Assembly (NCBI GenBank): GCA_038851035.1 | Contig: JAWCLH010000003.1 | Location: forward strand, 47,511 to 111,510 | Origin: Thermoplasmata archaeon | GTDB taxonomy: Archaea; Thermoplasmatota; DTKX01; VGTL01 | Reading direction: 5' to 3' | Length of the DNA: 64,000 nucleotides | In this document: positions 7,968 to 39,423 of the stretch, one piece after another | Position numbering within the stretch: the first letter of the stretch is position 1 | Layout: each line of letters begins with the position of its first letter | Translations under genes and position numbers: made by a program | Notes under the pieces: generated by a model | The model's input: the letters and a program-made list of their open reading frames with translations, nothing else | Told to the model about the DNA's origin: nothing | Database searches by the model: none

Positions 7968-8030
7968 GATTTGAATAATGAGTCGTATTTAAATGAACTT
8001 TTGGGTGGTTCAAAAGAGAAGGGCAGAGGG

Positions 8031-8053
8031 ACCCCTTCATTTCCTGTGGAAAT
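8031..8053 (-). promoter_or_regulatory. ORB-like origin recognition box (dyad TTCCACAGGAAAT + GAA + GGGGT, read on the minus strand)
   Basis: accccttcatttcctgtggaaat; its reverse complement TTCCACAGGAAATGAAGGGGT matches the archaeal ORB architecture (TTCC-N5-GGAA dyad followed by a G-string). It lies 180 nt upstream of cdc6. Confidence 0.45.
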
Positions 8054-8236
8054 CTAAAGAAACTTGATTGATTAGTTTTAAGATAGGAGATTCTAACGAT
8101 TTTGTAAAGAATTGTTATTATCGTCTACATGAAAACAATTTCTTGTTACAAACAGAAAAGTATTTGAAAATGGTATCCATTCCGCTTATCCCACAATAAA
8201 GAAAGGGGAGGAAGAAGGCTAGGAGGAGAAACCCAA

Positions 8237-20500: not shown

Positions 20501-21314
20501 CTGGGAGCTGACGGTGGGAGACCGGGAGCTCGCGGCGACGGTATTTGTCAATGGAAGCGCTAACTTCACCCTCGCGCCGCCCGTCGTCGTCAGGCCGGGG
20601 GAGATTGTGGTCCTAATCGTGGCGATTGACGTTAGGGAGGGGGCGGGGGAGTATGGTAGATTTGGGGCGGGGATAAAGAGGGTGGAGAGCAGCGGAGTCG
20701 AAGTGGATACTATTATCGAGAGCGAGACGAGAGATGTCGTATTTGTCAAAACGAATGGAAGATGGCAATCACTGACAGCATGTGTAATTAATGAGATAAA
20801 AAAGAAAAGTAGTGGTTACGAAGTTGAATGGATTGAAATTCTTAATAAATCAGGAAATAAGATTTCAGATTGGAAAATTTCAGAATCTCTCGGATCATGG
20901 AGCATATCTATTACTTTAGAAAATGGAGAATGTAAATATTATGCAATCGGCGAAGATATTGTATATTGGAAAAAAGATTCTACTTACAATACAATTTATT
21001 TGTATGATAATAATAATAATTTGAAAGATTCAAAAACTCTTTCTGAATTAACAGAAGGTGCCTATTCAATGGCTCGTTATAGAGATGCAGATGAAAATCC
21101 CACGGATGAATGGTATGATGAGAATGAGCCTACACCTGGAAATAAAAATGATTTAATCCCCGAGTTCCAAGATATTATCTATCCACTCGCCGGCCTTATT
21201 GCTGTAATCGTCGTAATCCGCGCCGCAGGCCGGGGGCGCACCGGGGGTATGAGGCGCATGAAGAGTGGAGCGGAGAAGACGATCCGCGCGCGGAGGCGGA
21301 CCAGCGAGCTCTAA
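17571..21314 (+). CDS. Large surface protein: Pro/Glu-rich N-region with EFEEAP repeats, (G)LVNGRG tandem repeats, single TM, extracellular DG-F-DW domains, C-terminal lamin-tail-like module and hydrophobic/Arg-rich anchor (PGF-CTERM-like)
   Basis: Repeats NGLVNGRGLVNARG at 18243-18570; TM LMMAALAVAIALLIIIPIFYI; motif IIIDGAFEDWD appears twice; C-terminal PLAGLIAVIVVIRAAGRGR. It is paralogous to the gene at 35041-37512. Confidence 0.8.
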   Translation: MRGRLVRWWTLGLMPVLQAQPPDFDGEEPPPQRREQPPPEGHDDFEEVPPPPPGGPAEKATSPPSGPVPAPAGPAEFEEAPPPAPGQSGAPAPESPEELPPSPPPPQPAAPGEPVEFEEAPSRPPAPEASMEFTEAPGPGPSREAPPPEEFEEAPAPGPPEQPAVPPPEAPSPAVTPRGPEEALPGEPEVFEVKAEEAPPVSLRTAPPAEAEAPETRPAARRRAGMVNGRGLVNARGRANGLVNGRGLVNARGRTNGLVNGRGLVNARGATNGLVNGRRRGLVNGASLVNGRRRRGLVNGGGLINGEGVINGRGLVNGKGLINGRGLTNGRQLVAAETVPSRPRPRKRLMMAALAVAIALLIIIPIFYIVQVEKGIAIDGIFADWSGVSNKYNDGGASPVPSTDNNVDIDMFGASASDTDLSFYLKVAGQVLKGAGNGVDTLTIFIDKDHDGNGYLVNSPGGVIHADLKLEVFGWDGLVKSASYSKFEGANPNDYSGWKSLGAARAAVSGSELEAQVWFRDTGMSRNSEVSILFYLRDSNGEEDYSDFTIGMSTGVLSVRQREPSLGGGGGSLVLDLTAHARTINVTSITVTRFGSGGGGMLQLSGPGGLERTASFAGTGSLTGFVLTVERDRTVSVTLYASGMSGVFGMGLASPTAVTASTNGRTVHVSVSGYSTALVNLAGGVPGGIIIDGAFEDWDATRGSAGYRSRLDRSDDVQQSGRVGTPGLIDRGGLAYYPNDNINLQEVAEYDSGGGPLYFYARVAGKAMAGQPVPATRRGTPGPSGPPSPPKELKLVGSDAFYVLIDDDGNKNTGYPLYTEDGDLLIGARYCAVAIGKNGVVLEVRTFVYDGGWREGGFSATAASGGKRIELSASGIAALVAHRTIIIAEDWTCNADRSDAPLVGAGRSGGEPTLIVNEVDIAKHVIRIGSSNNPLFRIELEALNGEVEVSGIELQRDGTAPDEDICLVRLMQDADGDWELTVGDRELAATVFVNGSANFTLAPPVVVRPGEIVVLIVAIDVREGAGEYGRFGAGIKRVESSGVEVDTIIESETRDVVFVKTNGRWQSLTACVINEIKKKSSGYEVEWIEILNKSGNKISDWKISESLGSWSISITLENGECKYYAIGEDIVYWKKDSTYNTIYLYDNNNNLKDSKTLSELTEGAYSMARYRDADENPTDEWYDENEPTPGNKNDLIPEFQDIIYPLAGLIAVIVVIRAAGRGRTGGMRRMKSGAEKTIRARRRTSEL
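18243..18570 (+). repeat. Coding tandem repeat (18-nt unit, ggcctcgtcaacggccg-like) encoding (G)LVNGRG/LVNARG units
   Basis: About 18 consecutive imperfect copies of ctcgtcaacggccgnggg visible directly in the sequence. Confidence 0.8.
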
Positions 21315-21755: not shown

Positions 21756-21968
21756 CGCCCAGACCCGGACTATCTAGATGCTTAGGGGTAAATGAAGTTA
21801 TCTGGGAACAGCCCGGAGCGTCTGGAGGCAAGTCGCTGGAGTAGGAAGCAAGGAGGCAACGGTCTCTATCCATCCGGAATAATCGAAAAGGGGGATGAGT
21901 TGGGAGAAGTTTCGGAGTTCGCCGGAGGCGGTCGATGGAGCCTCCGGCAGCGGTGGCAAAATGGAAAA

Positions 21969-26420: not shown

Positions 26421-27824
26421 TCAGGCGATATCCTGTCCCGACAGACTCGGGGTCTTCCGCTTTCCGGACGCAGATGGCGGTCTGGAGGCGCCGGGGTCCG
26501 GGCCCGGCAGACCGTGGTCATCTACGTTTACTCCCCGAAACCCTTCCCCACCTCTGCTGAGGGGCTGCCCAACCGGCTGGAGTTCGAGCGGAATCGCCAC
26601 CATTTGAACGAAGGAGAGACCCTTCCAGCGGAGCCGCGAGAGTAAGAGTTCTGCGATGCGGTACTGTCCGCCGGAGGTCATCAGCCGGCACCGGAGACGA
26701 CGCCTCTCGCCCTTCATCACACCTCCGATACAGGCGAGGAGGCTCTTCAGGTCCTCGGGATGGGCCTCGAGAACCACTCTCCCTCTGGCCACATCCTCCC
26801 TCCTGAAGCCTGTCATCTCTTCGAATCGATTGTTGATGAATATGCAGCGGAGCCTCCGGTCCACAATGCACACCCCCGCTGGCATGCTCCAGAGCATCTC
26901 GTCGCAGAACTCGCTCTCGGACCTTCTCGCCTCCTCCACGGCCTTCAGATCAGTTATGTCGACGCGAACGCCGGCTATCCCCGCTCGCTCACCTGTCGAG
27001 TCGGGGACTGGAGAAGCGCAGTCGAGCACCCAGCGGTAGACGCCGTCGGCGCGGAGCCACCGATAAACCAACCGGGCGGCGTCCCCTGAAGCCAGCTCCC
27101 GGAGAGCGCGCAGCACTCTCCTCTGGTCCTCGGGGTGGATGCGTGTCTTCCACAGGGCGGGGCGCTCGATGAACTCCGAGGGGCTGAAGCCCGTGAGCTC
27201 CTTCACCTTCCCTCCGACCCAGCTCGACGCAGCCGAGCCGCTGGTCGAAAGAAAATAGACGAAAACGGGAAGAGCTTCAGGAGATGGAATGACTGGGAGT
27301 GTGCCGCAGGCCTTTCTCTTTTCCTTCTCATCCCCTCCCTCGCCCGCCGCCGGTGGCATGGGGAGCACTGTGAGCTGGATGGACCCGTCCGGACCGCTTA
27401 GCTCCACAATCTGCCCGGAGCCCGTCTGGCCCACTGTTTTCAGAATTCTACGCAACTTCTGCCTTTCCTCTTCTCCGCAGAGCGATTTGAGGCTTTCGAA
27501 GAGACTCATAGCCTCATCATTGAGTCTGAGAATCTCGCCATCCGAGCTCGCCAGAAAAAGAGGTAGCGGGGTTCCTCCAGGGTCCTCGAGCAGCCCAGCT
27601 ATATCCTCCTGTCCAGTAACTGGCCTGGTTCTGAGCAGTCGGGGGTGAGGGGCACCACCAGTCACCCGGCCGCCCGCTGTTCCACCATCTACAAGGGCTG
27701 GACGGGGCGGCGATGGCCGAGGGATGGTGCGTACTCCCAGAGGAATCAGGGGAAGATCCCCGCCGGCCTTAAGGTGGGGGCATGCGGCTACCTCTTTCAG
27801 GAGACCTCCCATCCCGGTCCTCAA
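26421..27824 (-). CDS. Multi-PAS-domain sensor protein without a recognisable catalytic output domain
   Basis: Three PAS-like blocks (e.g. ILRLNDEAMSLFES, YRWLRADGVYRWVLDCASPVPD, MLWSMPAGVCIVDRRLRCIFINNRFEEMTGF...RLRCRLMTSGGQYRIAELLLSRL); the start is probably downstream of the called M. Confidence 0.65.
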   Translation of the reverse strand: MRTGMGGLLKEVAACPHLKAGGDLPLIPLGVRTIPRPSPPRPALVDGGTAGGRVTGGAPHPRLLRTRPVTGQEDIAGLLEDPGGTPLPLFLASSDGEILRLNDEAMSLFESLKSLCGEEERQKLRRILKTVGQTGSGQIVELSGPDGSIQLTVLPMPPAAGEGGDEKEKRKACGTLPVIPSPEALPVFVYFLSTSGSAASSWVGGKVKELTGFSPSEFIERPALWKTRIHPEDQRRVLRALRELASGDAARLVYRWLRADGVYRWVLDCASPVPDSTGERAGIAGVRVDITDLKAVEEARRSESEFCDEMLWSMPAGVCIVDRRLRCIFINNRFEEMTGFRREDVARGRVVLEAHPEDLKSLLACIGGVMKGERRRLRCRLMTSGGQYRIAELLLSRLRWKGLSFVQMVAIPLELQPVGQPLSRGGEGFRGVNVDDHGLPGPDPGASRPPSASGKRKTPSLSGQDIA

Positions 27825-27919
27825 CCGCTCATATCTATTACAACTCGTGATATAAATACCTTGCTGGAAAAATTAACAGCAAAGCCTAAATACTTAAAAC
27901 TCCGCCACCGACGGTAGAA

Positions 27920-29023
27920 TCAACACAGGGGCAGCACGCCGAACTGAAGGATTTCCATCCTCTCCTCGGGGGTCAGGAGGCTCGAGCTCAGGAGAATCGT
28001 GGCCCCGGTGTTTCTGGCGACCCGGACGAGGTCCCTGACGAGGTCGAGGGCGGCGAAGTATCCCGCGTTCGTGACGATGTAGTCCAGATTCTCGATGAGG
28101 ACCACAGACCTCTCCGACTGCTCGATGTAGTCCCGCACGGTGTGGAGGAGAACATCGCACTCCGAGGGAGGCAGCGCCCTCTCGTAGACCGATTGGGCCA
28201 TCCATATCACGGGCACCCTCCTGAGGCCCGTCGCCGCCCTCAGCGAGACGGGGTGGGTGCGCGTGACGACGAGGCCGGGTATCCCGGCGCGCGCCGCGGC
28301 CAAGAGCGCCTCCCTTGCCCCGGCGACCCCGCCCTCTCCGGCCAGGTATACCCCGGGCCCGGGTCCCGTCCAGCCCTCACCGCTGCCGGGTCCCTCGGCT
28401 GCGGGGGCCGGGCTGAATGCCTTGTACCTGAGGACGAGGAGGGTAAGAATCGCCGAGGCCCCCGCGGACGCGTAGGGAAAAATCGCAATGGAGACGCCGA
28501 GGAAAGGCAACAGGGCGTCGCAGACGGGGCCAGCGACGAAGAGCACGGTCAGGGCCGAGGCAATCATCTCTGGCTCCCTCTCGGATAGAACGGCCTCCGA
28601 GCGGCCGGCGTATAAAAAGAACGAGGCGAGGAGATAGAAGAACGCGCCGTGTAGCAGGTAGGCTGGATGGGGTGGGCTCCAGCCGTAACTCACGCCAGCC
28701 GCGAGTAAGAGTAGAGCGGGAATGAATAAGAGCGGCCCCCGAATGATTCCCCGCCCCGAGAGGTGCTTTCCTGATGTGTAGCCGAGGGTGAATAGGGCGA
28801 CGAGAGGGGCCTCCGCAATGGAGAGAGCGAGGGACGCTGTCGGATCGCTCGGCCAGAGATAGGTCAGGTCGTGGATTGAGAATGTGCCGATGAGGACCGC
28901 AAGAAGTGTGGCGACGCGGCCGCGGGCAGACCGAACGAGCAGTAGAAGAAGGCCGACGTGGAGGAATAGGGGAAGGAGGAGCCACTGGTCCAGGAGCCGA
29001 GTGAGCGGGGAGACCTCCCTCAT
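27920..29023 (-). CDS. 7-TM membrane protein with a C-terminal degenerate (P-loop-less) KaiC/RecA-like domain (DUF835-like architecture). Start trimmed to MREVSPLTRLL; the upstream 185 codons of the track ORF overlap the real ASCH gene in another frame
   Basis: About 7 hydrophobic helices, then GIPGLVVTRTHPVSLRAATG...SVVLIENLDYIVTNAGYFAALDLVRDLVRVARNTGATILLSS. This aligns block by block with the soluble DRPH paralogs at 29.9-34.4 kb and with the intact KaiC-like gene at 31931. Confidence 0.65.
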   Translation of the reverse strand: MREVSPLTRLLDQWLLLPLFLHVGLLLLLVRSARGRVATLLAVLIGTFSIHDLTYLWPSDPTASLALSIAEAPLVALFTLGYTSGKHLSGRGIIRGPLLFIPALLLLAAGVSYGWSPPHPAYLLHGAFFYLLASFFLYAGRSEAVLSEREPEMIASALTVLFVAGPVCDALLPFLGVSIAIFPYASAGASAILTLLVLRYKAFSPAPAAEGPGSGEGWTGPGPGVYLAGEGGVAGAREALLAAARAGIPGLVVTRTHPVSLRAATGLRRVPVIWMAQSVYERALPPSECDVLLHTVRDYIEQSERSVVLIENLDYIVTNAGYFAALDLVRDLVRVARNTGATILLSSSLLTPEERMEILQFGVLPLC

Positions 29024-29025
29024 CT

Positions 29026-29571
29026 TCAGCCCCCTCTCAGGGTCCTCAGGGGCCTGAACTCGATCACCCTGACGATCTCGAATGGGTTCCAGCGGTGGTA
29101 GGCCGCCTCCCACTTGCGCCTGAACTCCTCGAGCGAGCCGGACCCATCGGCTATTGCGTCCTCCTCGGTCAGGTCCGCGAGCCTTTTCCGGTAGACATCG
29201 GTGATTAGGAGCTGGGCAAAGGAGCTCCCGGATGCAACCCTGAGCTTTGCGTCGTAGACGCTCCCCGCCCTCATCCTCGTCCTCCTCAGCGGGCGAATTG
29301 TGAGAGTCTTGGAGCCGTATTGGATAAGCCTCACCTCTTCCGGCCGGAAAACGAGGGCGCCCGCGGAGCGCCTCCCGATAGAGGTGTTCCCCCCGGCCCA
29401 GAAGATAACCTTCAGGAAGGCGAAGGTGACGAGGCCGCCGATGAGGACGAGGGGGAGCTGGCCAAGCTTGTAGAACTCCGCGTGACCCCAGAAACCTATG
29501 ACGAGCAGCATCGAGACCAGGAGAAGCACCGCGTTCCGGACAGCGGAGGATTGCAGGCGTTTCTCGGTCAC
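29026..29571 (-). CDS. Membrane-anchored ASCH-domain protein (2 N-terminal TM helices + ASCH)
   Basis: VLLLVSMLLVIGFW and LVLIGGLVTFAFLKVIFWA, then FRPEEVRLIQYGSKTLTIRP...LLITDVYRKRLADLTEEDAIADGSGSLEEFRRKWEAAYHRW...IVRVIEF (ASCH beta-barrel signature). Its stop abuts the start of the 27920-29023 gene. Confidence 0.6.
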   Translation of the reverse strand: MTEKRLQSSAVRNAVLLLVSMLLVIGFWGHAEFYKLGQLPLVLIGGLVTFAFLKVIFWAGGNTSIGRRSAGALVFRPEEVRLIQYGSKTLTIRPLRRTRMRAGSVYDAKLRVASGSSFAQLLITDVYRKRLADLTEEDAIADGSGSLEEFRRKWEAAYHRWNPFEIVRVIEFRPLRTLRGG

Positions 29572-29915
29572 GAGACATTATTGAGCTGAGGGGAGATATC
29601 CGTTTCGGAGTGGGGCGGCACCGGGGAGCTGCGCGGCCGGCCTATGGGCTGAACGAACGGGCGGGGCCGTTGGCCCGAGGGGCGCCGGCCCCTTTCAGAA
29701 ATCGCGCGCCCGCGTTCAAGAAAAGGACAGCCGGAGGGGCCGCTGCGGGAAATTGCGGGTCACTTGAAAAATAAGGCTCGGGTCACCTGTATTTCCGTCG
29801 GAGCACCGAGAGCGGGCAGGGATGCCAGCGAGGGAAATTGGCTGCACGGGGGGGCTGGGGGGCGCGATTTCCTGCCCGACCCGGAGAGAATTTCAAACGA
29901 TTCGAAACCACACCG

Positions 29916-29931
29916 GAATTTTTAAATAACA
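29916..29931 (+). promoter_or_regulatory. Candidate TATA/BRE box (ggaatttttaaataac) for the pseudo-KaiC operon
   Basis: The only AT-rich hexamer in a 420-nt GC-rich divergent spacer; 60-75 nt upstream of candidate starts 29994/30003. Confidence 0.3.
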
Positions 29932-29993
29932 CACCACTGCAATTATCTCACAACGCCTCAGGAGGGCGGCGGAACCAAGGTCGGAAACAAAGG

Positions 29994-30725
29994 ATGCGGT
30001 GCATGGGTCGCGGCGGAGGTGCGGGTTGTATGGACGGCGGCGGTCTGAAAGAGCCAGAACCGGCATCATCCGTTGCCCCGGCCATCCCGGGGCTCGTGAG
30101 GCCCAACGGGGGACAGCCGGCCTATCTCTCCCCCCTGGAAGAAATTCTTGCGGGCCACCTCTCCCACTCACGGCCGGGTAGCAGGCTCCTCCTGACCTGT
30201 CCTTACACAAGAATTCTTAAAGTGGATATGGCCGTGCTCCGCGTTCTCCTCGGCCGGAGGAGGGAGAGAGGCATATACGTCTCCATAGACAGGCCCCACA
30301 GCTTCGTCCAGACCGCACTGAGAAAGATGGGTGTTCCTCTCGATGGCCTGATATTTATTGACGCCGTTTCAAAGCTGACGGGCATGAGGGCTGAGGGCTC
30401 CATGGTCAGGTTCCTGTCCAGCGGCTACTCCCTCCCCCTCCTCGACGACCTCTTCAGCAGGGCCTACCTGCCGGAGGGCATCCAGATGCACTTCGTCAGG
30501 CTGGAGGACCTGAGTTTCGTCCTTCTGGATAATATCGTGGTCATGCTGCAGTACACCACGCTCGAGAAGGTCAGGAGGACGGTCACCCTGCTGGGGGAGG
30601 CGGTTAAAAAGTTCACGGACATGAGAGCGCTCATCACACTCGACCCATCCGTCAGTCCGGAGCTCTACTCGATTGTGAAAGGCACCTGCGACCGAGAGAT
30701 TTCCCTGCTGGAGGCCGGGCTTTGA
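29994..30725 (+). CDS. Degenerate KaiC/RecA-like paralog 1 (no Walker A; SIDRPH motif); start uncertain (29994, 30003 or 30033)
   Basis: RVLLGRRRERGIYVSIDRPHSFVQTALRKMGVPLDGLIFIDAVS ... FVLLDNIVVMLQYTTLEKVRRTVTLLGEAVKK...ALITLD. These are the same blocks as the KaiC gene at 31931 (GEQGIFFTTLSEP / RIVIDPVSVI) but with the P-loop replaced. Confidence 0.6.
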   Translation: MRCMGRGGGAGCMDGGGLKEPEPASSVAPAIPGLVRPNGGQPAYLSPLEEILAGHLSHSRPGSRLLLTCPYTRILKVDMAVLRVLLGRRRERGIYVSIDRPHSFVQTALRKMGVPLDGLIFIDAVSKLTGMRAEGSMVRFLSSGYSLPLLDDLFSRAYLPEGIQMHFVRLEDLSFVLLDNIVVMLQYTTLEKVRRTVTLLGEAVKKFTDMRALITLDPSVSPELYSIVKGTCDREISLLEAGL

Positions 30726-31285
30726 GTGAGACTCCTGCCTCAGCCGAACACGGGGCTCTTCTTGAAGGTGAGGGCTTCGTTGTCTGCCCTGTCAGGTTCC
30801 CGATGATATCAAAAGTCATGATTGGAATTCTGGACAAGCTCCTGAGACGGACGCAAGGCATAGGGGCGGTACTCTCCCTCGACAGGCCGCACAGCTACAT
30901 CAGCCGTCTTGTGGAGAAGAACGGAATTCCCCAGGACAGAATTCTCTATATAGACGCAGTGATGGGGATCTCGGGAGAGAGCCCAGAGCCGGACGGGGGA
31001 GCGGAGATGCTGCCCGCGCCCTTCTGCATCAACATTCTATCGGACTTCATCAACGTCTGTGGGCCTAGGTTCAGCGAGAAGAGACCGGGCTTCCTGCTGA
31101 TTGACAACCTCAGCGCTCTCACGTCGTACGTTTCCGAGGAGTGCCTCAAGAGATTCCTGGAAAGCCTCCTCGTCCTGAGTAGGCAGACGCCCGGGCTGAG
31201 GTGCGTTTTTGTTCTGGACAAAGACGCTCATCCAAGAATTTACGAAATGGTTAGGGCGATGGGTGCGAGGGAGGTGAGCCCTTGA
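30722..31285 (+). CDS. Degenerate KaiC/RecA-like paralog 2 (SLDRPH motif)
   Basis: LRRTQGIGAVLSLDRPHSYISRLVEKNGIPQDRILYIDAV...FLLIDNLSALTSYVSEECLKRFLESLLVLSRQTPGLRCVFVLD; overlaps the upstream stop by 4 nt. Confidence 0.6.
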   Translation: MSETPASAEHGALLEGEGFVVCPVRFPMISKVMIGILDKLLRRTQGIGAVLSLDRPHSYISRLVEKNGIPQDRILYIDAVMGISGESPEPDGGAEMLPAPFCINILSDFINVCGPRFSEKRPGFLLIDNLSALTSYVSEECLKRFLESLLVLSRQTPGLRCVFVLDKDAHPRIYEMVRAMGAREVSP

Positions 31286-31926
31286 ATGCTGGCCCCAGGC
31301 CTGCCGCCCCATGGGAAAGCGCCCGAACGGACCAGGCAGTGGCGAGCGGGGAGCGCCCCAGGCCCCGTCTCCCCACGTCGGGCTCAAGCCTTCTCCCGGC
31401 GGACAGGTGGGCCTGCCTTGTCAGAGAACTAAGCACCGGGAGGAAACTGCTCGTAACCACCTCCCCACGCCTTCTGAATCTAGTGAGCCTGTACGTGGTC
31501 TGTTATCTCCAGAAGCATCCCGGAAGCGTTCTGTTCATCTCCGTGGACCGACCCAAAGGATACATGTCAAAAATGGTAGAGAGGTACTGCCCTGCAAGCG
31601 GGAAAGTGGTCTGGAGGGACTATACGATGATAAATCAAGCGAGGGTTTCCCATGTTGCCGGTCTCTTCGCCCCCAAGCTACTTCTAGATGCCCTCGACCA
31701 CCTTTCCCGAGTAGAAGGCGGAGAGACCTCGGTCGTGGTTTCGAACGTCTCCGCGCTGAGCTACTACAACAGCAATGACCGCGTCCGAGAATTTCTTGCA
31801 GCCCTAAGCAGAGAAGTCGACGAGGGACGAATAAAGAAGATTGCGATAATAATGGACGGTCAGGGGCAATATATATATAACGAAGCAAAAATATTTACTG
31901 AAAAATCGGTCGACATCGGGTGGTGA
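31282..31926 (+). CDS. Degenerate KaiC/RecA-like paralog 3 (SVDRPKGYM motif)
   Basis: VVCYLQKHPGSVLFISVDRPKGYMSKMVERY...SVVVSNVSALSYYNSNDRVREFLAALSREVDEGRIKKIAIIMD; 4-nt overlap with the upstream gene. Confidence 0.6.
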   Translation: MNAGPRPAAPWESARTDQAVASGERPRPRLPTSGSSLLPADRWACLVRELSTGRKLLVTTSPRLLNLVSLYVVCYLQKHPGSVLFISVDRPKGYMSKMVERYCPASGKVVWRDYTMINQARVSHVAGLFAPKLLLDALDHLSRVEGGETSVVVSNVSALSYYNSNDRVREFLAALSREVDEGRIKKIAIIMDGQGQYIYNEAKIFTEKSVDIGW

Positions 31927-31930
31927 GGGA

Positions 31931-32620
31931 ATGGGCGAGATCGGTCTGATAAGAATCAAGTCTGGGATCCACGGGCTCGATGAGATGATGGAGGGCGGGT
32001 TCGCCTTCCCTTCTACAGTGCTCGTTGCCGGAAGCGCTGGAACGGGGAAGACTACGTTCGCCCTCCAGTTCCTAAGCCAGGGCGCGAGGGAGGGAGAGCA
32101 GGGAATCTTTTTCACCACTTTGAGCGAGCCCACGCAATGGATGCTGAGGTTCGTCTCTCGATTCAGCTTTTTGGACAAAGACACCTTCGGCAAGCAGATA
32201 AAGTACGTCGACCTCGGACCGTTCCTCAGGGAGCAGAGGGACCCCGCGGCTATGCTCAAGTTCATAGACGACCAGATCGCCGAGCACATGCCCCAGAGAA
32301 TCGTTATCGACCCCGTCTCAGTCATAGGAGGAATGATCAAGGGGGACTACAGGATGTTCCTATACGACCTGACCACCCACCTGAAGAACTGGCAGGCCGT
32401 GTCCATACTGACGGGTGAGGTCCTGCCCAACGAGCCCTACCCGGTCGAGATATCGTACATCGTGGACACGGTCATCATCCTGAGTCTCGGCCTCACCCCC
32501 GAGGGTGCGCGCAGGAAGTACTGCGAGATTCTCAAGATGCGCGGCACCACTCACGCGACGGGCCAGCACCTGATGGACATATCGAGAGACGGAATAACGG
32601 TCACGATGGGGCTGAAGTAG
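31931..32620 (+). CDS. Single-domain KaiC/RecA-like ATPase with intact Walker A and B
   Basis: GIHGLDEMMEGGFAFPSTVLVAGSAGTGKTTFALQFL (Walker A at ~32030-32053), RIVIDPVSVI (Walker B), ILKMRGTTH; 229 aa. Confidence 0.8.
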   Translation: MGEIGLIRIKSGIHGLDEMMEGGFAFPSTVLVAGSAGTGKTTFALQFLSQGAREGEQGIFFTTLSEPTQWMLRFVSRFSFLDKDTFGKQIKYVDLGPFLREQRDPAAMLKFIDDQIAEHMPQRIVIDPVSVIGGMIKGDYRMFLYDLTTHLKNWQAVSILTGEVLPNEPYPVEISYIVDTVIILSLGLTPEGARRKYCEILKMRGTTHATGQHLMDISRDGITVTMGLK

Positions 32621-32643
32621 GGCTCATTCGAGACGGAGCCGCC

Positions 32644-33237
32644 ATGTCCTACAGGTCTGAGCTGATTTTTCAGGAGCTGCGGAGGGCTCTGGAGCGGCCG
32701 GGGGCGGGCGGTGTTCTTGTCACGGTAAGGGCCACGTCGGTCACAAGAATCAATCTGTCGGTCCTCAGGGTTCTTCTTACAGAGAGGGGGGAGCGAGGAA
32801 TATTTCTCTCCCTCGACAGGCCGGACAGGCACATGCTGGAGCTTCTGGAGAGGCACAACCTCGCCGCCCCTGGCGAGGCATCTTCCTCGCAGGAGACGAG
32901 GCCAAAGAAAATAGTCGTGGCCGCGGGCGTCATCAGCCCCGTGGAGTTCTTAGACGAGGTCCTCGCCCGCCTCTCGGACAGGGAGAGGGCCCCTGCGCTC
33001 GAGGAGGACCTGAGGTCCTTCCAATTCATAATGGTTGACAACCTCTCATCTATGGCTCTTTATAGCGGCCCTCGCAATCTAGAGCGATTCTTTAGGGGCA
33101 TGGAGGAGCTCCTCCTGCGCTTCCCAAACCTAAGATGCGTCTTCGTCACGGCAAGAGGGGCGCCTCCGGAGGTCATGGCACTTGCCAGGAGAGTATGTCC
33201 CGTCGAGGTGGACATAAAGGACGAGTGGCTGATTTGA
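32644..33237 (+). CDS. Degenerate KaiC/RecA-like paralog 4 (SLDRPDRHM motif)
   Basis: RVLLTERGERGIFLSLDRPDRHMLELLERHNL...FIMVDNLSSMALYSGPRNLERFFRGMEELLLRFPNLRCVFVTA. Confidence 0.6.
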   Translation: MSYRSELIFQELRRALERPGAGGVLVTVRATSVTRINLSVLRVLLTERGERGIFLSLDRPDRHMLELLERHNLAAPGEASSSQETRPKKIVVAAGVISPVEFLDEVLARLSDRERAPALEEDLRSFQFIMVDNLSSMALYSGPRNLERFFRGMEELLLRFPNLRCVFVTARGAPPEVMALARRVCPVEVDIKDEWLI

Positions 33238-33306
33238 GCGCTGAGGGGAGCACTAAGTGGGAAGCACCCCGGAGCTTCAAGAGCCAGTGGAAGGGGGGAA
33301 ACCCTT

Positions 33307-34362
33307 TTGCAGCCCGCGCTACATCCTGACGAATCACTCCTGGAGGTCGCGGAGCTCGCGGCCCGGGGCAGGAGGTGGGAGGAGGCTCTCTCGCTCCTCG
33401 ACAGGGTTCTTGAGGCTGCACCTGCGCTGGAGCGCGCCCACATCCTTCGATGCGGAATTCTAAGGGCCCTCGACCGCCGGAGCGAGGCCGTCGCCTCGGC
33501 CGAGGCCTTCGCTTCCGCGCTCCCCGGCTCGGCGAGAGCCCACCACGAGCTGGGGGTGTGCCTGAGCGCCGCGGGCAGGTATGAGGAGAGCGTGGAAGCC
33601 TTCAGGAGGGCACTGGAGCTTGACCCGAAACTGCTCGAGGCCTGGAAATGGATGGGAATCGCTCTGGGTAGGATGGGAAGGCTCGAGGAGGCCTTCCGGT
33701 GCTACGAGCGGGCCAGTGGCAGGGCGCCGGAGCTGAGCGTTCCCGTGCCGTCCGGGCCCGCGCCATCCGGGCTCGAGACAAGAATTCACGAGCTGATGAC
33801 CGGAATGATGGAAAAGGGCGGCGGTTGCGTGCGGGTCGAGACAGACCCCGCACTCACCTTTAGGACTAGCGTCCTTCTTCTCTCGATTCTTCTCAGGGAC
33901 TGGGACATGGACGGCGTCCTGGTTTCGCTTGGCAGGCCCGCGGACGTCTACCGGAGAGCGCTTGCCGCTAGGGTTCACACCCGCCACCCCCCACACTTCG
34001 TCGAGGTGGTGGCGGGCGGACCCTCGCCCGAGGCCGAGGGGGCACGGGAGTGGGTCACAAGCCTCTCCGCCTTCGAGCCCGATAGGATAGACGCCGCAGT
34101 CAGGGCGGGGCTCCAGAAGGTCGCGGAGATGTACGGCGGGGAGGAGCACTTCGTCATCATAGACGATATAACAGCGATGGAATTCTACAACGGGCGCGAG
34201 GTCGTGAGGAGGTTCGTCGCGGGCTTCTTGGGGGAGCTGTCGTTGCTCAACATCTTCTGCTTCGTAGTTGTTCCCACGAGAAGAGCGCTGGAGCTGCTTG
34301 GGCTCCTTCCCTTTTTCTGTCGAGAGAGAATTTGCGTGAGGGCGGAGTGGCTTCGCGAGTGA
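33307..34362 (+). CDS. TPR-repeat N-domain fused to degenerate KaiC/RecA-like paralog 5
   Basis: N-terminal TPR units (ALSLLDRVLEAAPALERAHILRCGIL..., AHHELGVCLSAAGRYEESVEAFRRALELDPKLLEAWKWMGIALGRMGRLEEAFRCYERA), then LLLSILLRDWDMDGVLVSLGRPADVYRRAL...FVIIDDITAMEFYNGREVVRRFVAGFLGELSLLNIFCFVVVPT. Confidence 0.6.
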   Translation: MQPALHPDESLLEVAELAARGRRWEEALSLLDRVLEAAPALERAHILRCGILRALDRRSEAVASAEAFASALPGSARAHHELGVCLSAAGRYEESVEAFRRALELDPKLLEAWKWMGIALGRMGRLEEAFRCYERASGRAPELSVPVPSGPAPSGLETRIHELMTGMMEKGGGCVRVETDPALTFRTSVLLLSILLRDWDMDGVLVSLGRPADVYRRALAARVHTRHPPHFVEVVAGGPSPEAEGAREWVTSLSAFEPDRIDAAVRAGLQKVAEMYGGEEHFVIIDDITAMEFYNGREVVRRFVAGFLGELSLLNIFCFVVVPTRRALELLGLLPFFCRERICVRAEWLRE

Positions 34363-34449
34363 CCCGTGAAGGGTTTCCGGGCCGGCGCCCCCCTGAGTCA
34401 GAGCAAAACCTAAATACTCGGGCATATAAAGAATTCCTATAGAGTAAAA

Positions 34450-34698
34450 ATGATGGAGCCCACACCTGTAAATATGCTGGGTCGTCCCGTGAGAGATGCA
34501 GAGGGCCGGAGGATCGGTGTCATAAAGGGCCTCCACCAGCGCTTCTGCCCCGGCGGCTTCGAAGAGGTCTCGATTGTGAACTGCAACGGCGTGATTATTG
34601 CAAGGGTGGAGGAGCTCGTGCCGGCGGGGCAGGAGTTCCTTCTTATAGCAAACAGGGAGCGAAGGGAAGAGGGGCAGAAAAGTTCCGGAGATGGCTAG
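34450..34698 (+). CDS. Small PRC-barrel-like protein (tentative)
   Basis: 82 aa, LGRPVRDAEGRRIGVIKGL...VIIARVEELVP pattern resembling PRC-barrel proteins; weak. Confidence 0.3.
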   Translation: MMEPTPVNMLGRPVRDAEGRRIGVIKGLHQRFCPGGFEEVSIVNCNGVIIARVEELVPAGQEFLLIANRERREEGQKSSGDG

Positions 34699-35040
34699 GC
34701 GCATAGACGGGCGGCGGTCCTCTTGGAGAGGGAGCGGCAGTCGTGAGGCTTTCCTCCTTCCACGGTTAAGTTGCGTCGTATGTAAAGGGTGCGAAGCGGC
34801 GGGCAATGCCAGGTCACTTGGCCATGTCACTTCGAATTTACTATCGGTGCTGGATAATTTTCCAGGCTGGTGCCCCGGGCCACGGTCGAGTAGAATATGG
34901 CTCAACCGCGCAATGTGTTTCGCGAACTCACAAAATCAATATATATCGGCTGTTAATCATAGCAATGGCCAGTAAATATATCTAGTCGACGTTGGGCGAT
35001 CTGCAATGTCGAAACGGGCAATGCCGAGTGTGGTGGTCGC

Positions 35041-37512
35041 ATGGTCGGAGAGAGAGGCGAGGAGAAATTGGGTGATAGGGAGGAAGATGGGCTGGAGGGG
35101 AGAGCCGGAGGAGAAGAGGATGCGACCACTGATGGGTGTCCGGGGGAACAGGAGAGCGTCCTGAGGCCCGTGCCCCCTCCTGAGAGAATTCAGGAGATTG
35201 AGATGGAGGAAGCGGAGGCCGTGGAGGTGGAAGAGGACATTGCAGAGGTCGAGCAGGCGAAGGGTGAGGAGGCCTTTAGGAAGAGCGAGGGGGCGATGGA
35301 GACAGGTGCCGGCTCCCCCGGAACACCCTTGGGTGGGGCTGAAGGACCGGTTGAGATTCCGGGCGACAGGAGGGGTGAGAGGGGCCGGAGCAATGGGCTT
35401 CTGAACAGGAGGGCCCTGACCAACGGTCGGAGCATAGTCAACGGCAACGGCCTAGTCAACGGCGCCAAAACGGGTTTAATAAACGGTGGAAAAAGGGGCG
35501 CAATCAACGGCCGAGGCATCGTCAATGACAAGGGAATCACTAACGGGAGCGATACAGGAGTGGTCGAGGCCCCGCCCCGCAGGCTCACTAAGAAGGGGCC
35601 CTTAGCCGCACTGGCCATCATCGTTGCCTTGGTTCTCATCACCGTCTCATATTACGCCCTCCTCTCGACCGAGAGAGGAGTAAGGGTCGACGGCGGGTTC
35701 TCGGACTGGACCCCCTTCCTCAAGTACCACGACGAGGCCGGCGACCAGCGGAATGCTGACATCGACATCACACAACTCGCGCTGGCCGTGGAGGACTCAT
35801 CGGTCTCGCTCTATGTACGAGTTGGGGGGAGGGTCCTGGCTGGAAGGGACGGCGGTGTGGACATGTTCTGCTTCTTTTTCGACACGGACAGGAACCCAGC
35901 CACGGGATATCCCGCGCCAAGCGTCGGGGCGGAGTATGTTCTCGTCGTGGACGGATACGATGGACGCGTCTCGGCCTGCGGGCTTTACAGGTTCGGGGGG
36001 GCGGGGCGGTCCATTAGCGACTGGAACTCGAGGACCCCCGTCGGTTCCGCAAGAGCGGCCGCCTCCGGGGCCGAACTCGAGGCCCAAGTCGCTCTCTCGG
36101 ACCTCGGGCTCCGACCTGGCTCCGGGCCGAACGTCCAGACCCTAGCGCGGCACAGCGGGGGCGGGGAGGACATCGGGCCGGTCGTCGGGACGGGGCGGGC
36201 CGCGCTTACGGCGGTCTGGGCCCGCGTCGGTCCCGTCTCCGTCCCTCCTGGCAAGGCGGGTGTGCCTCTGCTCAGGGTGGAGCTCAGGGCTCAAGGGGGC
36301 TCCGTGAGGGTCTCATCGCTACGGGTGTCCGTGAACGAGGGAACAGGGGCGCGCGACATCAGCCGGCTCTCGCTGATGACCGCCTCTGGTGCGGAGGTGC
36401 CCGGGGCATCGGCCCCAATTGCAAATGGGTCGGCGCTGCTCGCCCCTGGGAGCCCCTTGGAGCTCAGGCGCGGCGAGTCGATGAACCTCACAGTGGTGGC
36501 CTGGATAGCCTTTGAGGCGGAGAGGGGTCGGGCGGTCGGGCTCTCGCTCGAAGGGCCGCAGAGCATCATCTCCAGCGCGGACACCGTGATGGTGGAGGGC
36601 CGCGGGGGGAATCTGACGCAAATCGGAGAGCAGGCGCAGCCCGGTCGAATCATCATTGATGGAGCGTTTCAGGACTGGGAGGGCATCCCGGGCCACCCAG
36701 ACCCCATCGGCGACGCGACCAACCCTTCCGTGGACCTCAGGGACTTCAGGGTGACCAACGACTCAGCCTCACTCTTTCTCTACGCCGCTGTTGACGGAGA
36801 GATAATGGCGGGCGCGTGGGTGCCGGAGACGAAGCAGAGGCCACAGCCAGGAGGCGGGGGCGGTGGCGGCGTGCCCGCGCCCCTCCCCGAGCTGACGGGA
36901 GAGGACGCCCTCTTTGTGTTCCTCGACATCGATGGTCTCTCTGAGACAGGCTACGCAGGCGAGGGGGCTCCGCCGGGAGCGGATTATCTGGTCAAAATAA
37001 CTGGTCGGGGTGGGAAAATAACATCCCACCTCGTTATGCCCTTCACGGGTGGGGCGGACCGGAGCCAGTGGAGCTGGGGCAGGGGGACGGAGCTCCCCGC
37101 CGCGGCGGGCGGGACCGGAATCGAGCTAGCCGTGGCATTGGAAACCATCGAGAGCCCAGTGGGAGTGGTCTCCCTGTTCTATTACATGACCGGCTGGGGC
37201 CAGAGCCGGGATGCCGGGACGGAAATCGAGTACAGCCTTAGCGGCGGGGGATGGGGGAGGGGAGCCGGCGCCGGCGACCCGCCGGGGGCCGGGCCGGGCC
37301 TTGGGTCGCCAGAGGGTTCGGGCGATGAGCCCCTTCACGCCCCTGAGTTCGGTGAGCTTCTCCTGCCTATAGCAGGAGTCATCGGCATATTCGCAGGAGC
37401 CAGAGGAGCGAGACGGAGGAACGCGCGCGTCCGAAGGGGAGAAAAAAGGAATGATGGAGCGGTGACCGTGGCGTTCTCCGTTGAGGGGGCGTTGAGGGAA
37501 TGGTCTGGCTGA
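35041..37512 (+). CDS. Surface protein, paralog of 17571-21314: acidic N-region, (G)LVNG/INGRG repeats, TM, extracellular DG-F-DW domains, C-terminal hydrophobic + Arg-rich anchor
   Basis: GLLNRRALTNGRSIVNGNGLVNGAKTGLINGGKRGAINGRGIVNDKGITNG; TM LAALAIIVALVLITVSYYALL; RVDGGFSDWTP and IIIDGAFQDWEG; C-terminal LLLPIAGVIGIFAGARGARRRN. Confidence 0.75.
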   Translation: MVGERGEEKLGDREEDGLEGRAGGEEDATTDGCPGEQESVLRPVPPPERIQEIEMEEAEAVEVEEDIAEVEQAKGEEAFRKSEGAMETGAGSPGTPLGGAEGPVEIPGDRRGERGRSNGLLNRRALTNGRSIVNGNGLVNGAKTGLINGGKRGAINGRGIVNDKGITNGSDTGVVEAPPRRLTKKGPLAALAIIVALVLITVSYYALLSTERGVRVDGGFSDWTPFLKYHDEAGDQRNADIDITQLALAVEDSSVSLYVRVGGRVLAGRDGGVDMFCFFFDTDRNPATGYPAPSVGAEYVLVVDGYDGRVSACGLYRFGGAGRSISDWNSRTPVGSARAAASGAELEAQVALSDLGLRPGSGPNVQTLARHSGGGEDIGPVVGTGRAALTAVWARVGPVSVPPGKAGVPLLRVELRAQGGSVRVSSLRVSVNEGTGARDISRLSLMTASGAEVPGASAPIANGSALLAPGSPLELRRGESMNLTVVAWIAFEAERGRAVGLSLEGPQSIISSADTVMVEGRGGNLTQIGEQAQPGRIIIDGAFQDWEGIPGHPDPIGDATNPSVDLRDFRVTNDSASLFLYAAVDGEIMAGAWVPETKQRPQPGGGGGGGVPAPLPELTGEDALFVFLDIDGLSETGYAGEGAPPGADYLVKITGRGGKITSHLVMPFTGGADRSQWSWGRGTELPAAAGGTGIELAVALETIESPVGVVSLFYYMTGWGQSRDAGTEIEYSLSGGGWGRGAGAGDPPGAGPGLGSPEGSGDEPLHAPEFGELLLPIAGVIGIFAGARGARRRNARVRRGEKRNDGAVTVAFSVEGALREWSG

Positions 37513-37742
37513 GTGCGCGGACGCTCTTCTGGACGGCCCTTGCACTGTCGGCCCTCGGCCTTGCAGGGTTCACGCTAGGTCTCCTCTGGGACTCGTTCTG
37601 GGGTCGCGGCCTCGGGACTGGGGCCATTGGGCCACTCCAGCTCTCAGTGGTCATTGGTGGCCTTGTCTCCTGCGGGGTCGGAATCGCGATTTTTTTGATT
37701 CCTTTGCGCAAGGTCGGGGCGAGTGCGGAGGAAGAAGAATGA
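37500..37742 (+). CDS. Small 2-TM membrane protein (tentative)
   Basis: 80 aa with two hydrophobic helices; overlaps the upstream stop; weak. Confidence 0.3.
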   Translation: MVWLSARTLFWTALALSALGLAGFTLGLLWDSFWGRGLGTGAIGPLQLSVVIGGLVSCGVGIAIFLIPLRKVGASAEEEE

Positions 37743-37815
37743 AAGGTACGGAGGCCCATTGCGGAACTTTAGAAGCCACCGGTAACCGGTATGGAAAGAG
37801 GAGGTTGGAAAGACG

Positions 37816-39423
37816 ATGAGTGAGCGGGAATGGGGCGAGGCGGACATCCGGACCCTGCTCTCCATCCTCCCGGTCGGGGTGTTCGCGGCGGACTCCGAGG
37901 GCCTCTACACGTATGTTAACCTTCGCTGGTCCGAGATAACTGGAATCTCGATGGAGGCGGCGAGGGGCAGGGGCTGGGAAGAGGGGTTGCATCCGGAAGA
38001 TAGGGCTACGACGGTCAGAGACTGGTACGCTGCCGTGAAGAGGGGCGCTATATGGAAGAGCCGGCACAGGCTCCGGAGCCGGATGGGGAAGGAGGTGTGG
38101 GTGTTGGAGCAGGCGGTCCCGCTCCGGGGCAGGGAGGGAAGAGTCCAGGGCTATATCGGCACCCAGCTGGACATAACTCTCCAGATGGAGGAGGAAAGGA
38201 GGAAAAAAAGGGAATTGGAGGTTGTCGAGAGGGTCACCCAGCTCCTCGGTGCGGGTCTCGCTTTAATATCAAAAAAATCACGGGTAATCTGGGCCAACAG
38301 CGTGCTAAAAAGGCGCTATGGAGAAATAGAGGGGACTATATGCCCTCTCGCGCATGGCCGCGGGCGGGCCCTGTGCCCAAAGTGCGCTGTTATGGAGGTC
38401 TTCCTCACCGGAAGGGATGCGGTCGTCAAGGAACAGAAGAGCGTAGAGAGGGATGGTGAGGTACGATGGAACCAGATAATGGCCTCTCCGATCAGAGGCG
38501 AGGGCGGCGGGATCGAGGCCGTTCTGGAGCTCGTCGTTCCAATAACTGAAAGAAAAATATCGGAGCAGACGCTTAGGGAGAGCGAGGAGAGGTTCCGAAG
38601 GCTTGCCGGGGCAGCTTTTGAGGGAATAGTGATTCACGGCCCGGAGGGAATTATCGACTGCAACCTCAGGTTCGCAGAGATGGTCGGGAGGGAGCCGGCC
38701 GAGCTCGTCGGGACCGATCTCTGCGAACTGATATCACAGGAGCAGAGGGCTCTAGCGAGGGAGTGCTTTTCCCAAGGCCTCAGCTGGCCCCACGAGTTCC
38801 TTCTGCTCAGGAAGGGCGGCGAGCCCCTGCCCGTTGAGGTCGTAGGGCGGGAGATTCCATACGAAGGCAGACGTCTCTTCGTTTCTTCGTTTAGGGACAT
38901 CAGCGAGAGAAAGGAGGTCGAAAGGCTCAGGAGGGAGAGGGAGAGGTCCGAGCTCTACGGCCTCGTGGTCAGCGCCCTCCCTCTGATTGTGCCCGGACCC
39001 TACCAGGAGATCCGGATGGATCTTCTCAAGACCTTCGCCGAGCGCTTCGAGGCCTACTTCAGGCCCAGATACGAAAAAGAAATGGAGGCGGAGGGTGAGG
39101 CGTCAGAAAGCGGGGCCGCGAAGAGAAATGGACGCGCAGTTACCATGGACAAATACGTTCACTGGTGTGCGGAGCTCTTCAGGAGCTTCGGCCTCACTGT
39201 CAGCTCGGGTTCAGAGGCCGGCTCTGGCCATCTGGAGTTCCACAGCTGCCCCTGGATAGAATACTCGAAGAACAACCCCGTGTTCTGCATCTTGTGCAGG
39301 ACGATGGTCTCACGGAGCTTCTCATGGGCCTGCCCGGGCGGGGCTGTGGGCGTGAAGAGCACAATCGCCGGCGGCGGGAAGTGCTGCAGGTTCGAGTTCA
39401 GACAGCTCCGCGGAAAAAGGTGA
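37816..39423 (+). CDS. Multi-PAS sensor protein with a Cys-rich C-terminal putative ligand/metal-binding output domain (V4R-like?)
   Basis: PAS blocks (LLSILPVGVFAADSEGLYTYVNLRWSEITG..., ALISKKSRVIWANSV..., IVIHGPEGIIDCNLRFAEMVGREPAELVG...). The C-terminal 150 aa carry HWC, HSCPW, CILC, WACPGG, GKCCRFEF cysteines. Confidence 0.7.
   Translation: MSEREWGEADIRTLLSILPVGVFAADSEGLYTYVNLRWSEITGISMEAARGRGWEEGLHPEDRATTVRDWYAAVKRGAIWKSRHRLRSRMGKEVWVLEQAVPLRGREGRVQGYIGTQLDITLQMEEERRKKRELEVVERVTQLLGAGLALISKKSRVIWANSVLKRRYGEIEGTICPLAHGRGRALCPKCAVMEVFLTGRDAVVKEQKSVERDGEVRWNQIMASPIRGEGGGIEAVLELVVPITERKISEQTLRESEERFRRLAGAAFEGIVIHGPEGIIDCNLRFAEMVGREPAELVGTDLCELISQEQRALARECFSQGLSWPHEFLLLRKGGEPLPVEVVGREIPYEGRRLFVSSFRDISERKEVERLRRERERSELYGLVVSALPLIVPGPYQEIRMDLLKTFAERFEAYFRPRYEKEMEAEGEASESGAAKRNGRAVTMDKYVHWCAELFRSFGLTVSSGSEAGSGHLEFHSCPWIEYSKNNPVFCILCRTMVSRSFSWACPGGAVGVKSTIAGGGKCCRFEFRQLRGKR

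Follow-up and report, generated by a model that had tools for sequence, protein, structure and literature searches.

Organization of the locus

We analysed a 64,000-nucleotide stretch of DNA from an uncultured Thermoplasmata archaeon (assembly GCA_038851035.1, contig JAWCLH010000003.1, positions 47,511 to 111,510), hereafter the window, and focused on a gene cluster at its positions 26421–39423. In this cluster, one single-domain KaiC-family ATPase is accompanied by five pseudo-KaiC paralogs without a P-loop (pK1 to pK5), a bitopic surface protein, further membrane proteins and two PAS proteins, PAS1 and PAS2 (Table 1). We put at roughly 50% the probability that the cluster encodes a conserved signalling module, associated with the membrane and centred on the ATPase. 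The product of pK1 is identical to NCBI protein QW379_01580, and a near-identical copy of the locus is held by assembly GCA_038894075.1.

On the plus strand, the order is pK1, pK2, pK3, KaiC, pK4, TPR-pK5, an 82-aa protein, the 823-aa surface protein, an 80-aa protein with two transmembrane (TM) helices, and PAS2. The minus-strand unit is read in the order TM-ASCH, DUF835 membrane protein and PAS1, with PAS1 last. Successive intergenic distances from pK1 to pK4 are -4, -4, 4 and 23 nt, a spacing typical of one operon, and this gene packing suggests that KaiC and its paralogs are co-transcribed. The start of pK1 was set from the 231-aa NCBI protein, the open reading frame (ORF) itself opening at 29838. 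Rfam and tRNA scans found no RNA gene within the locus region.

Table 1. Genes and intergenic features of the KaiC cluster, with one paralog located elsewhere in the window.
Feature	Positions	Strand	Basis
PAS1, two clear PAS domains, disordered termini	26421..27824	-	Pfam
Multi-TM protein with C-terminal DUF835	27920..29023	-	Pfam, hydropathy scan
Protein with two TM helices and ASCH domain (TM-ASCH)	29026..29571	-	Pfam, TM scan
Divergent intergenic region, 458 bp	29572..30029	.	Motif inspection
pK1, P-loop-less KaiC/RecA-like paralog	30030..30725	+	blastp, orthologue alignment
pK2, P-loop-less paralog, 4-nt overlap with pK1	30722..31285	+	
pK3, P-loop-less paralog	31282..31926	+	
Single-domain KaiC-family ATPase, 229 aa	31931..32620	+	Pfam KaiC
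pK4, P-loop-less paralog, the one modelled structurally	32644..33237	+	AlphaFold
TPR-pK5, N-terminal TPRs and P-loop-less KaiC-like domain	33307..34362	+	Pfam, blastp
Small conserved protein, 82 aa (72 to 82 aa in family), possibly PRC-barrel-like	34450..34698	+	
Bitopic surface protein, 823 aa	35041..37512	+	blastp, AlphaFold2, synteny
80-aa protein, two TM helices, 13-nt overlap with surface-protein gene	37500..37742	+	
PAS2, PAS-PAS-PAS-MetOD1	37816..39423	+	Pfam
LVNGRG-repeat surface paralog, outside the locus, directly 3' of giant TM+TPR protein	17571..21314	+	blastp

An initial annotation of the window had described the locus as an island leading from PAS sensors to KaiC. It had recognized the TPR-fused pseudo-KaiC and had taken the 823-aa protein for a paralog of the LVNGRG surface protein, and both assignments held up in the searches reported below. 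The mini-protein that it placed inside the island is indeed there, its PRC-barrel-like label being the weakest item of that description. Two partners had gone unmentioned, the DUF835 membrane protein and TM-ASCH.

One intact KaiC among P-loop-less paralogs

The KaiC gene encodes an intact, active-looking ATPase. Pfam KaiC (PF06745) covers residues 9–226 of its 229 (E 3e-39; 135.2 bits against a cut-off of 26.6), and the translation contains a Walker A motif, GSAGTGKT, at residue 34, a Walker B motif, RIVID, and a KMRGT motif. The protein scored below the cut-off of every NCBIfam equivalog.

The five pK domains are mutually paralogous (blastp E 1e-5 to 2e-17) and have in common an invariant S-x-D-R-P motif and a D-N...Y motif. 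No Walker A motif ([AG]xxxxGK[ST]) occurs in any of them, and in pK3 the Walker B Asp is also gone. TPR-pK5 joins an N-terminal TPR region (TPR_1, E 1.2e-16) to a C-terminal domain paralogous to the four adjacent ORFs. None of the five was matched above threshold by a Pfam or NCBIfam model, the best values being E 0.12 for KaiC and E 0.02 for DUF7504, with no match to DUF835.

Structure and profile searches place these domains among the RecA-type ATPases. The AlphaFold model of pK4 (predicted local distance difference test score, pLDDT, 85; predicted TM-score, pTM, 0.83) has a RecA-type alpha/beta fold, for which Foldseek returned ArlH/FlaH first (4yds, E 1.4e-7), then RecA, the CI domain of KaiC and the Pyrococcus KaiC-like protein PH0186. 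When the pK family profile was compared with PDB sequences, the sole significant match was FlaH, across the Walker B region (E 4e-4). A profile search of 1.84 billion representatives retrieved at least 965 relatives at E<=1e-3. Among 107 sampled relatives, matches were found to DUF7504 (23 proteins), Pfam KaiC (16), DUF7090 (11) and DUF835 (8), and TPR repeats occur in about 15. The pK domains of these 107 proteins contain no Walker A motif, the sole match (in P0080) lying in a separate AAA_16 domain.

The kinship of the pK family to KaiC rests on three lines: searches by fold, the profile search of PDB sequences, and this bridging through Pfam. Because of the fold of pK4, the FlaH profile match and the Pfam matches of the relatives, we consider the label pseudo-KaiC justified at the level of fold and superfamily. 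Literature searches around DUF7504, DUF7090, iKaiC (inactivated KaiC) and PEF-CTERM returned nothing on the family studied here.

Conservation of the array

Six lineages were compared: the window with locus L007, then L010, L001, L012, L009 and L004 (numbers with L designate loci of relatives). All six share a core order of pK1, pK2, KaiC, pK4, a protein of about 72 aa and a surface protein of about 800 aa. Because this order recurs in six diverged lineages, the arrangement is not a product of chance. The pKs are 32–55% identical between lineages, and KaiC is 83–84% identical in L001, L004 and L009. The complement around this core varies: pK3 is confined to the branch of the window and L010, TPR-pK5 is missing from L004, and the soluble RecA-like subunits per locus number 6, 6, 5, 5, 5 and 4 across the six lineages.

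Neighbour-joining gave a tree in which every pK has a clade to itself, and the branching inside these clades is the same. Since each is thus an orthologous clade, we conclude that the pK duplications are older than the lineages and that the copies were kept as distinct subunits. One intact KaiC has been retained together with 3 to 5 ancient, P-loop-less RecA-fold paralogs that are distinct orthologous subunits.

A simpler arrangement was found on Methanomassiliicoccales-type contigs, where a single pK-family protein is directly followed by a KaiC ATPase (L015:8001-9435 and L016:8001-9364). The presence of the simple adjacent pair on such distant contigs suggests that the pK-KaiC pair is the ancestral, widespread unit and that the array in the window is an expansion of it.

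These genes might also lie together through genome kinship without forming a functional unit, the PAS proteins being simply abundant, which we judge distinctly unlikely. All full clusters come from one clade with a closely conserved KaiC, the flanking PAS proteins differ among lineages, and a single locus was confirmed when 185,579 species representatives were scanned, although with exact patterns. These patterns were derived from the pK1-only alignment, in which 43 residues are invariant across 17 orthologues; the broad pK alignment has no conserved stretch usable for such a scan. Mere co-location nevertheless fits poorly with a gene order kept despite the divergence of the pKs, with overlapping start and stop codons and with the paralog-specific clades. 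It fits no better with an independent second cluster and with fusions joining the same domains, to which we now turn.

The surface protein and other membrane partners

The partner linked most steadily to the KaiC array is the surface protein, not the PAS proteins. It is syntenic and 42–47% identical in L001, L004 and L009. With the paralog located outside the locus it shares 32% identity over 641 aa (blastp E 6e-49), both proteins having (L/I)VNG repeats. It starts with an acidic cytoplasmic N-terminus, the (L/I)VNG repeats at residues 115-170 and a TM helix near 185-207; beyond this helix come three beta-sandwich ectodomains and a C-terminal anchor composed of HAPEF, a TM segment and an Arg-rich end.

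A common plan is found in all 25 homologues. A variable cytoplasmic N-terminus is followed by 3 to 19 (L/I)(V/I)NG repeats, which end immediately ahead of a hydrophobic membrane segment, and then by an ectodomain that usually opens with DGxFxDW. Most complete members of the family end in PLHAPEF, a hydrophobic helix and an Arg-rich tail. A PEF-CTERM/archaeosortase sorting signal was considered and rejected, none of five C-terminal peptides matching an NCBIfam model even with E allowed to reach 10. In the AlphaFold2 model of the ectodomain (pLDDT 82) there are three beta-sandwich domains, for which Foldseek returned generic adhesin, integrin-leg and carbohydrate-binding-module-type matches with low TM-scores. 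As only generic matches were obtained, no specific ligand can be named.

Further clusters and fusions also tie this family to KaiC-type genes. A second cluster combines a 275-aa KaiC, a DUF835 protein of 1329-1388 aa and an LVNG paralog. It was found at L017:2867-10712, on contig JAWAQE010000028 of GCA_038894075.1, a near-identical genome of the window lineage, and at L018:2985-10670, in a distant relative. A single ORF of 1422 aa (P0196, L019:1554-5822) encodes a KaiC domain, TPRs, a Zn-ribbon, an acidic linker and 14 LVNG repeats, and continues with a short hydrophobic stretch and an ectodomain like that of the surface protein. Two further proteins, P0194 and P0197, are TPR-LVNG fusions. Within the window, the gene directly 5' of the paralog (11639-17443) encodes 1934 aa, with TM helices at the N-terminal end and TPRs numbering in the dozens, and this pairing mirrors that of TPR-pK5 with the surface protein in the locus.

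The other membrane proteins of the cluster also have counterparts. The DUF835 protein (PF05763, 56.6 bits against a cut-off of 33.1) has about 5 to 7 TM helices and orthologues of 39-40% identity in L001 and L009; its orthologue in L010 gives a weak HisKA_7TM match. TM-ASCH (Pfam ASCH, E 2.5e-9), whose gene ends 2 nt upstream of the DUF835 gene, is 65-67% identical in L001 and L009, and the 80-aa protein with two TM helices has a 44% identical counterpart in L009.

ArlH/FlaH is a single-domain KaiC-like protein that forms a regulatory ring at the membrane beneath a larger machine. In a similar way, the KaiC/pK complex could be, instead of a signalling hub, a cytoplasmic assembly or anchoring platform that helps to insert, sort or maintain the LVNG-tailed protein, with the PAS proteins as loosely associated regulators. 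We regard such a platform as unlikely. ArlH/FlaH (PDB 4yds and 4wia), a component of a surface-structure machine, is the best structural match of the pK family and the one PDB sequence that it matches significantly, and the most constant partner of the array is a surface protein with a conserved HAPEF-TM-Arg-rich end. Moreover, the window lineage has at least three paralogs of the surface family, each adjoining TPR, KaiC or iKaiC genes. However, ArlH keeps its Walker A motif and binds ATP, unlike the pKs, and the NCBIfam ArlH model (NF052589) gave 22.6 bits against a cut-off of 215. The cluster contains no ArlI/ArlJ-type secretion ATPase, membrane platform or archaeosortase, no ArlI, ArlJ or ArlX was found nearby in the window region or the compared loci, and no PEF-CTERM model was matched. 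Fusions of REC and PAS domains to iKaiC in relatives point to signalling instead.

PAS proteins and two-component signalling

The cluster is flanked by two multi-PAS proteins, as the initial annotation had proposed. Pfam recognized PAS_3 in residues 205-286 of PAS1 (E 3.4e-27) and PAS in residues 308-401 (E 2.9e-16), with no other Pfam or NCBIfam domain. PAS2 has three PAS domains followed by a Cys-rich C-terminal domain, previously read as a small-molecule- or metal-binding output. Residues 384-528 correspond to Pfam MetOD1 (PF18546, E 1.7e-33, 116 bits against a cut-off of 23.8). This domain, "methanogen output domain 1", is described as a REC-associated domain of methanogens with a conserved Cys cluster, related to HNOB, V4R and ATC-hydrolase domains (PMC5847659), a description with which the earlier reading agrees and a secondary, sub-threshold ATC_hydrolase match in the same region is consistent. 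The cysteines of CPW and FCxLC and the C-terminal Cys are kept across seven aligned proteins, PAS2 and six relatives. The middle PAS domain of PAS2 also contains, at residues ~174-190, a C-x11-CPxC motif kept in the window and in L010, which may bind a metal or an Fe-S cluster. Were translation to start at 37759 instead, PAS2 would have 554 aa, as annotated in L007.

Neither PAS protein gave a HisKA/HATPase, GGDEF, HD-GYP, REC or HTH match in Pfam or NCBIfam, in line with the earlier statement that both are without kinase, GGDEF, HD-GYP or DNA-binding outputs. The accompanying claim that their downstream partner is unexplained, unless it is the KaiC-like assembly, needs correcting in that PAS2 carries a catalogued output-type domain, MetOD1. 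In L010, the orthologue of PAS2 occupies the same cluster position and is a collinear REC-PAS3-MetOD1 protein of 661 aa with an extra N-terminal receiver. Since this collinear orthologue carries REC, PAS2 is a REC-less derivative of a response-regulator family, and that family is no orphan but part of two-component signalling.

Related loci carry further proteins of this kind. DUF835 has been equated with iKaiC and is also an output domain of response regulators, and both REC-PAS-DUF835 and REC-PAS-MetOD1 architectures have been catalogued (PMC5847659). Just upstream of the array in L001 and L012, we found a PAS histidine kinase, a REC-PAS-DUF835 protein, two REC-PAS-MetOD1 proteins and three membrane DUF835 proteins; the REC-PAS-DUF835 protein of relatives is a receiver fused to an inactivated KaiC domain, and it adjoins the PAS histidine kinase. 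Two-component kinase and receiver domains are present in the orthologous loci L001, L010 and L012, and in five of the six lineages MetOD1 proteins are encoded no more than 10 kb from the array. From their domains, the sensors of relatives belong to canonical two-component signalling.

These results partly support the proposal of a sensor-to-KaiC island. A conserved linkage of PAS proteins with KaiC-like arrays had been put forward as a check, and PAS, REC and kinase genes do adjoin the array in relatives. Orthologues of PAS1, by contrast, were found only in L007 and L010 among the compared lineages, different PAS proteins and kinases occupying its position in the others, and the surface protein is the steadier partner. 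Gene neighbourhoods thus indicate that the linkage between PAS-type signalling and the array is conserved, the individual sensor proteins being exchangeable.

The small protein and the genomic setting

The 82-aa protein matched Pfam PRC (PF05239) below threshold (E 0.006, 16.9 bits against a cut-off of 21.2). In its family, sub-threshold PRC matches occurred in 20 of 36 members (best E 5.8e-4) and PRC_RimM matches in 5; no PDB structure was matched by sequence. All six lineages have the protein, and its homologues fall into 41 clusters. PRC-barrel proteins are described as acting in archaeal division (bioRxiv 10.1101/2023.03.28.534520 and 10.1101/2023.03.28.534543), and the cluster could accordingly regulate FtsZ-based division or envelope growth, with the small protein acting as CdpB proteins do. 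This is very unlikely in our view. In the window and in L010, two ftsZ genes (ftsZ1 and ftsZ2) begin 104 nt beyond PAS2, and the weak PRC matches are recurrent. Yet ftsZ adjacency is absent from L001, L004, L009 and L012, which all bear the cluster, every PRC match is under the Pfam cut-off, and no SepF or CdpA homologue was seen.

The ftsZ genes are in turn followed by secE, nusG and genes for ribosomal proteins. That two lineages keep the cluster at one stable place in the chromosome, next to ftsZ, secE, nusG and rpl11, is hard to reconcile with a defence or mobile island, as are a guanine-plus-cytosine (GC) content equal to that of the surroundings and the lack of any integrase or repeats seen there. 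KaiC-type and STAND-like ATPases are known from defence systems, and a HEPN gene lies upstream in L007; PADLOC nevertheless gave no match for nine of ten proteins and one weak match for KaiC (mad8, E 2.4e-4). A defence or mobile function is therefore highly implausible.

The intergenic region between the divergent genes contains GGGTCACYTG at 29757-29766 and 29780-29789, 23 bp apart, and an AT-rich, TATA-like stretch near 29918-29930. In L001, L009 and L012, two TGTCACTGG copies each are found at the homologous intergenic place, and the repeated motif may be an operator. It showed no window-wide enrichment (9 occurrences observed against 5.8 expected). A further copy lies at 34813-34820, 5' of the surface-protein gene.

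A Ras/Roc-type small GTPase adjoins the cluster in L001 (17945-18661), L012 (18045-18779) and L004 (8990-9598), and does not in the window. The archaeal Dip oscillator consists of a GTPase, a DUF2073 protein and a Zn-ribbon protein (PMC13228585); we rejected the assignment of these GTPases to a DipA system because the composition differs.

Three other regions of the window deserve mention. At 8001-10000, GC falls sharply to 35%, against ~60% elsewhere, at an Orc1/Cdc6 gene (8237-9517; Cdc6_C, E 2e-28), and this is probably a replication origin region. The gene at 21792-26348 encodes a 1518-aa FG-GAP/cadherin-like surface protein in which a TM helix is combined with a long tail rich in Pro and Glu and, at the C-terminus, a zinc ribbon (CxxC...CxxC); the final 46 aa of the protein are 76% identical to an L009 sequence. 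Another RecA-like ATPase is encoded at 58995-60098 on the minus strand (AAA_25, E 1e-22; weak DnaB_C match), with two tRNA genes and a drop in GC to 47% (60001-62000) close by, and the region around it could be an integrated element.

A proposed KaiC-centred signalling module

We favour the reading of the cluster as a signalling module and propose the following mechanism. The pKs would co-assemble with KaiC into a hetero-oligomeric ring or stack of RecA type, in which KaiC alone would bind and hydrolyse ATP, or autophosphorylate, and the dead pK subunits would offer dedicated surfaces for docking. Two parts, the pK5 TPR arm and the iKaiC domain carried by the DUF835 protein, would tether the assembly to the membrane and dock it to the cytoplasmic (L/I)VNG tail of the surface protein. 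PAS and MetOD1 proteins may signal to the KaiC assembly, modulating it upon small-molecule, redox or metal cues. In relatives, PAS/MetOD1 proteins with receivers would be fed by PAS histidine kinases; those of the window, which have no REC, presumably detect their cues directly. Intracellular inputs would then be coupled to the state of the surface protein by a switch, namely the nucleotide or phosphorylation state of KaiC. Information could also pass inward, engagement of the ectodomain being reported to the cytoplasm.

Taken further, the module would be a hitherto unrecognised kind of transmembrane signalling device in Thermoplasmatota, in which the LVNG tails of bitopic surface receptors are read or driven by a hetero-oligomeric ring of one live KaiC and several dead paralogs, docked through TPR and iKaiC domains and gated by PAS and MetOD1 proteins. 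This fuller picture is tentative and, on balance, doubtful.

Several observations weigh against a signalling module of this kind. With all full clusters coming from one Thermoplasmatota clade, the synteny is partly common descent. The subunit count varies among lineages, so a fixed hexamer with one of each subunit is not universal. Comparison with hhalign of pK profiles, built from 5 or 107 sequences, with the KaiC and DUF835 domains of the window was not significant, single-sequence targets being weak ones. The KaiC-LVNG fusion P0196 occurs on one metagenomic contig only and has an atypical P-loop, GPSGAEKE. On the sensory side, PAS1 is unconserved outside close relatives, and no kinase or receiver was found among the window ORFs scanned. 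The evidence is entirely computational, and the organisms are uncultured.

Relation to known systems and significance

Makarova, Galperin and Koonin (mBio, 2017) reportedly put forward, as a hypothesis, that KaiC-like proteins are hubs of archaeal signal transduction. The hub idea is thus already published, and the cluster fits it. Like the KaiC-hub and iKaiC systems of the published catalogue (PMC5847659), it combines a KaiC ATPase and inactivated KaiC domains with linked PAS, REC, TPR and DUF835 domains. It differs from them in that the pKs of the window match no Pfam or NCBIfam model and that one live KaiC is accompanied, in fixed order, by 3 to 5 dead paralogs. It also has a constant LVNG-tailed bitopic surface partner, unmentioned in PMC5847659, and MetOD1, reported there for methanogens, occurs here in a REC-less protein of Thermoplasmatota.

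The cyanobacterial KaiABC clock shares the ATPase family (PF06745) with the cluster, whereas the KaiC of the window has a single domain of 229 aa instead of CI and CII. Models of clock KaiC scored low on it (circ_KaiC TIGR02655, 75.8 against 546 bits; PRK09302, 103 against 408), no KaiA or KaiB was found among its scanned neighbours, and nothing indicated an oscillator. Hetero-oligomeric rings of RecA-like pseudo-ATPases are known from Elongator (Elp456) and from the RAD51-paralog complex BCDX2, which are eukaryotic and act on tRNA and DNA, respectively. The likeness is one of architecture, by analogy only, as no nucleic-acid-binding context is evident at the cluster.

Three elements appear to be new: the Pfam-less pK family, several paralogs of which surround one live KaiC in a fixed array; the LVNG-tail surface family as the recurrent partner of this array; and a REC-less MetOD1 protein in Thermoplasmatota. 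Two families without curated models are hereby defined, the pK-type iKaiC, for which there are 965 or more cluster representatives, and the LVNG-tail surface protein. The KaiC-hub proposal is still almost wholly computational, and the cluster offers a compact, conserved test case for it, with one active ATPase, defined dead paralogs that resemble obligate partners, and inputs in the form of PAS/MetOD1 proteins (and REC in relatives). An unusual asset is a concrete candidate for the membrane partner, backed by gene order, a second paralogous cluster and fusions. If the proposed device is real, archaea would have in it an equivalent of receptor-plus-cytoplasmic-kinase pathways, with a KaiC ATPase taking the place of the kinase.

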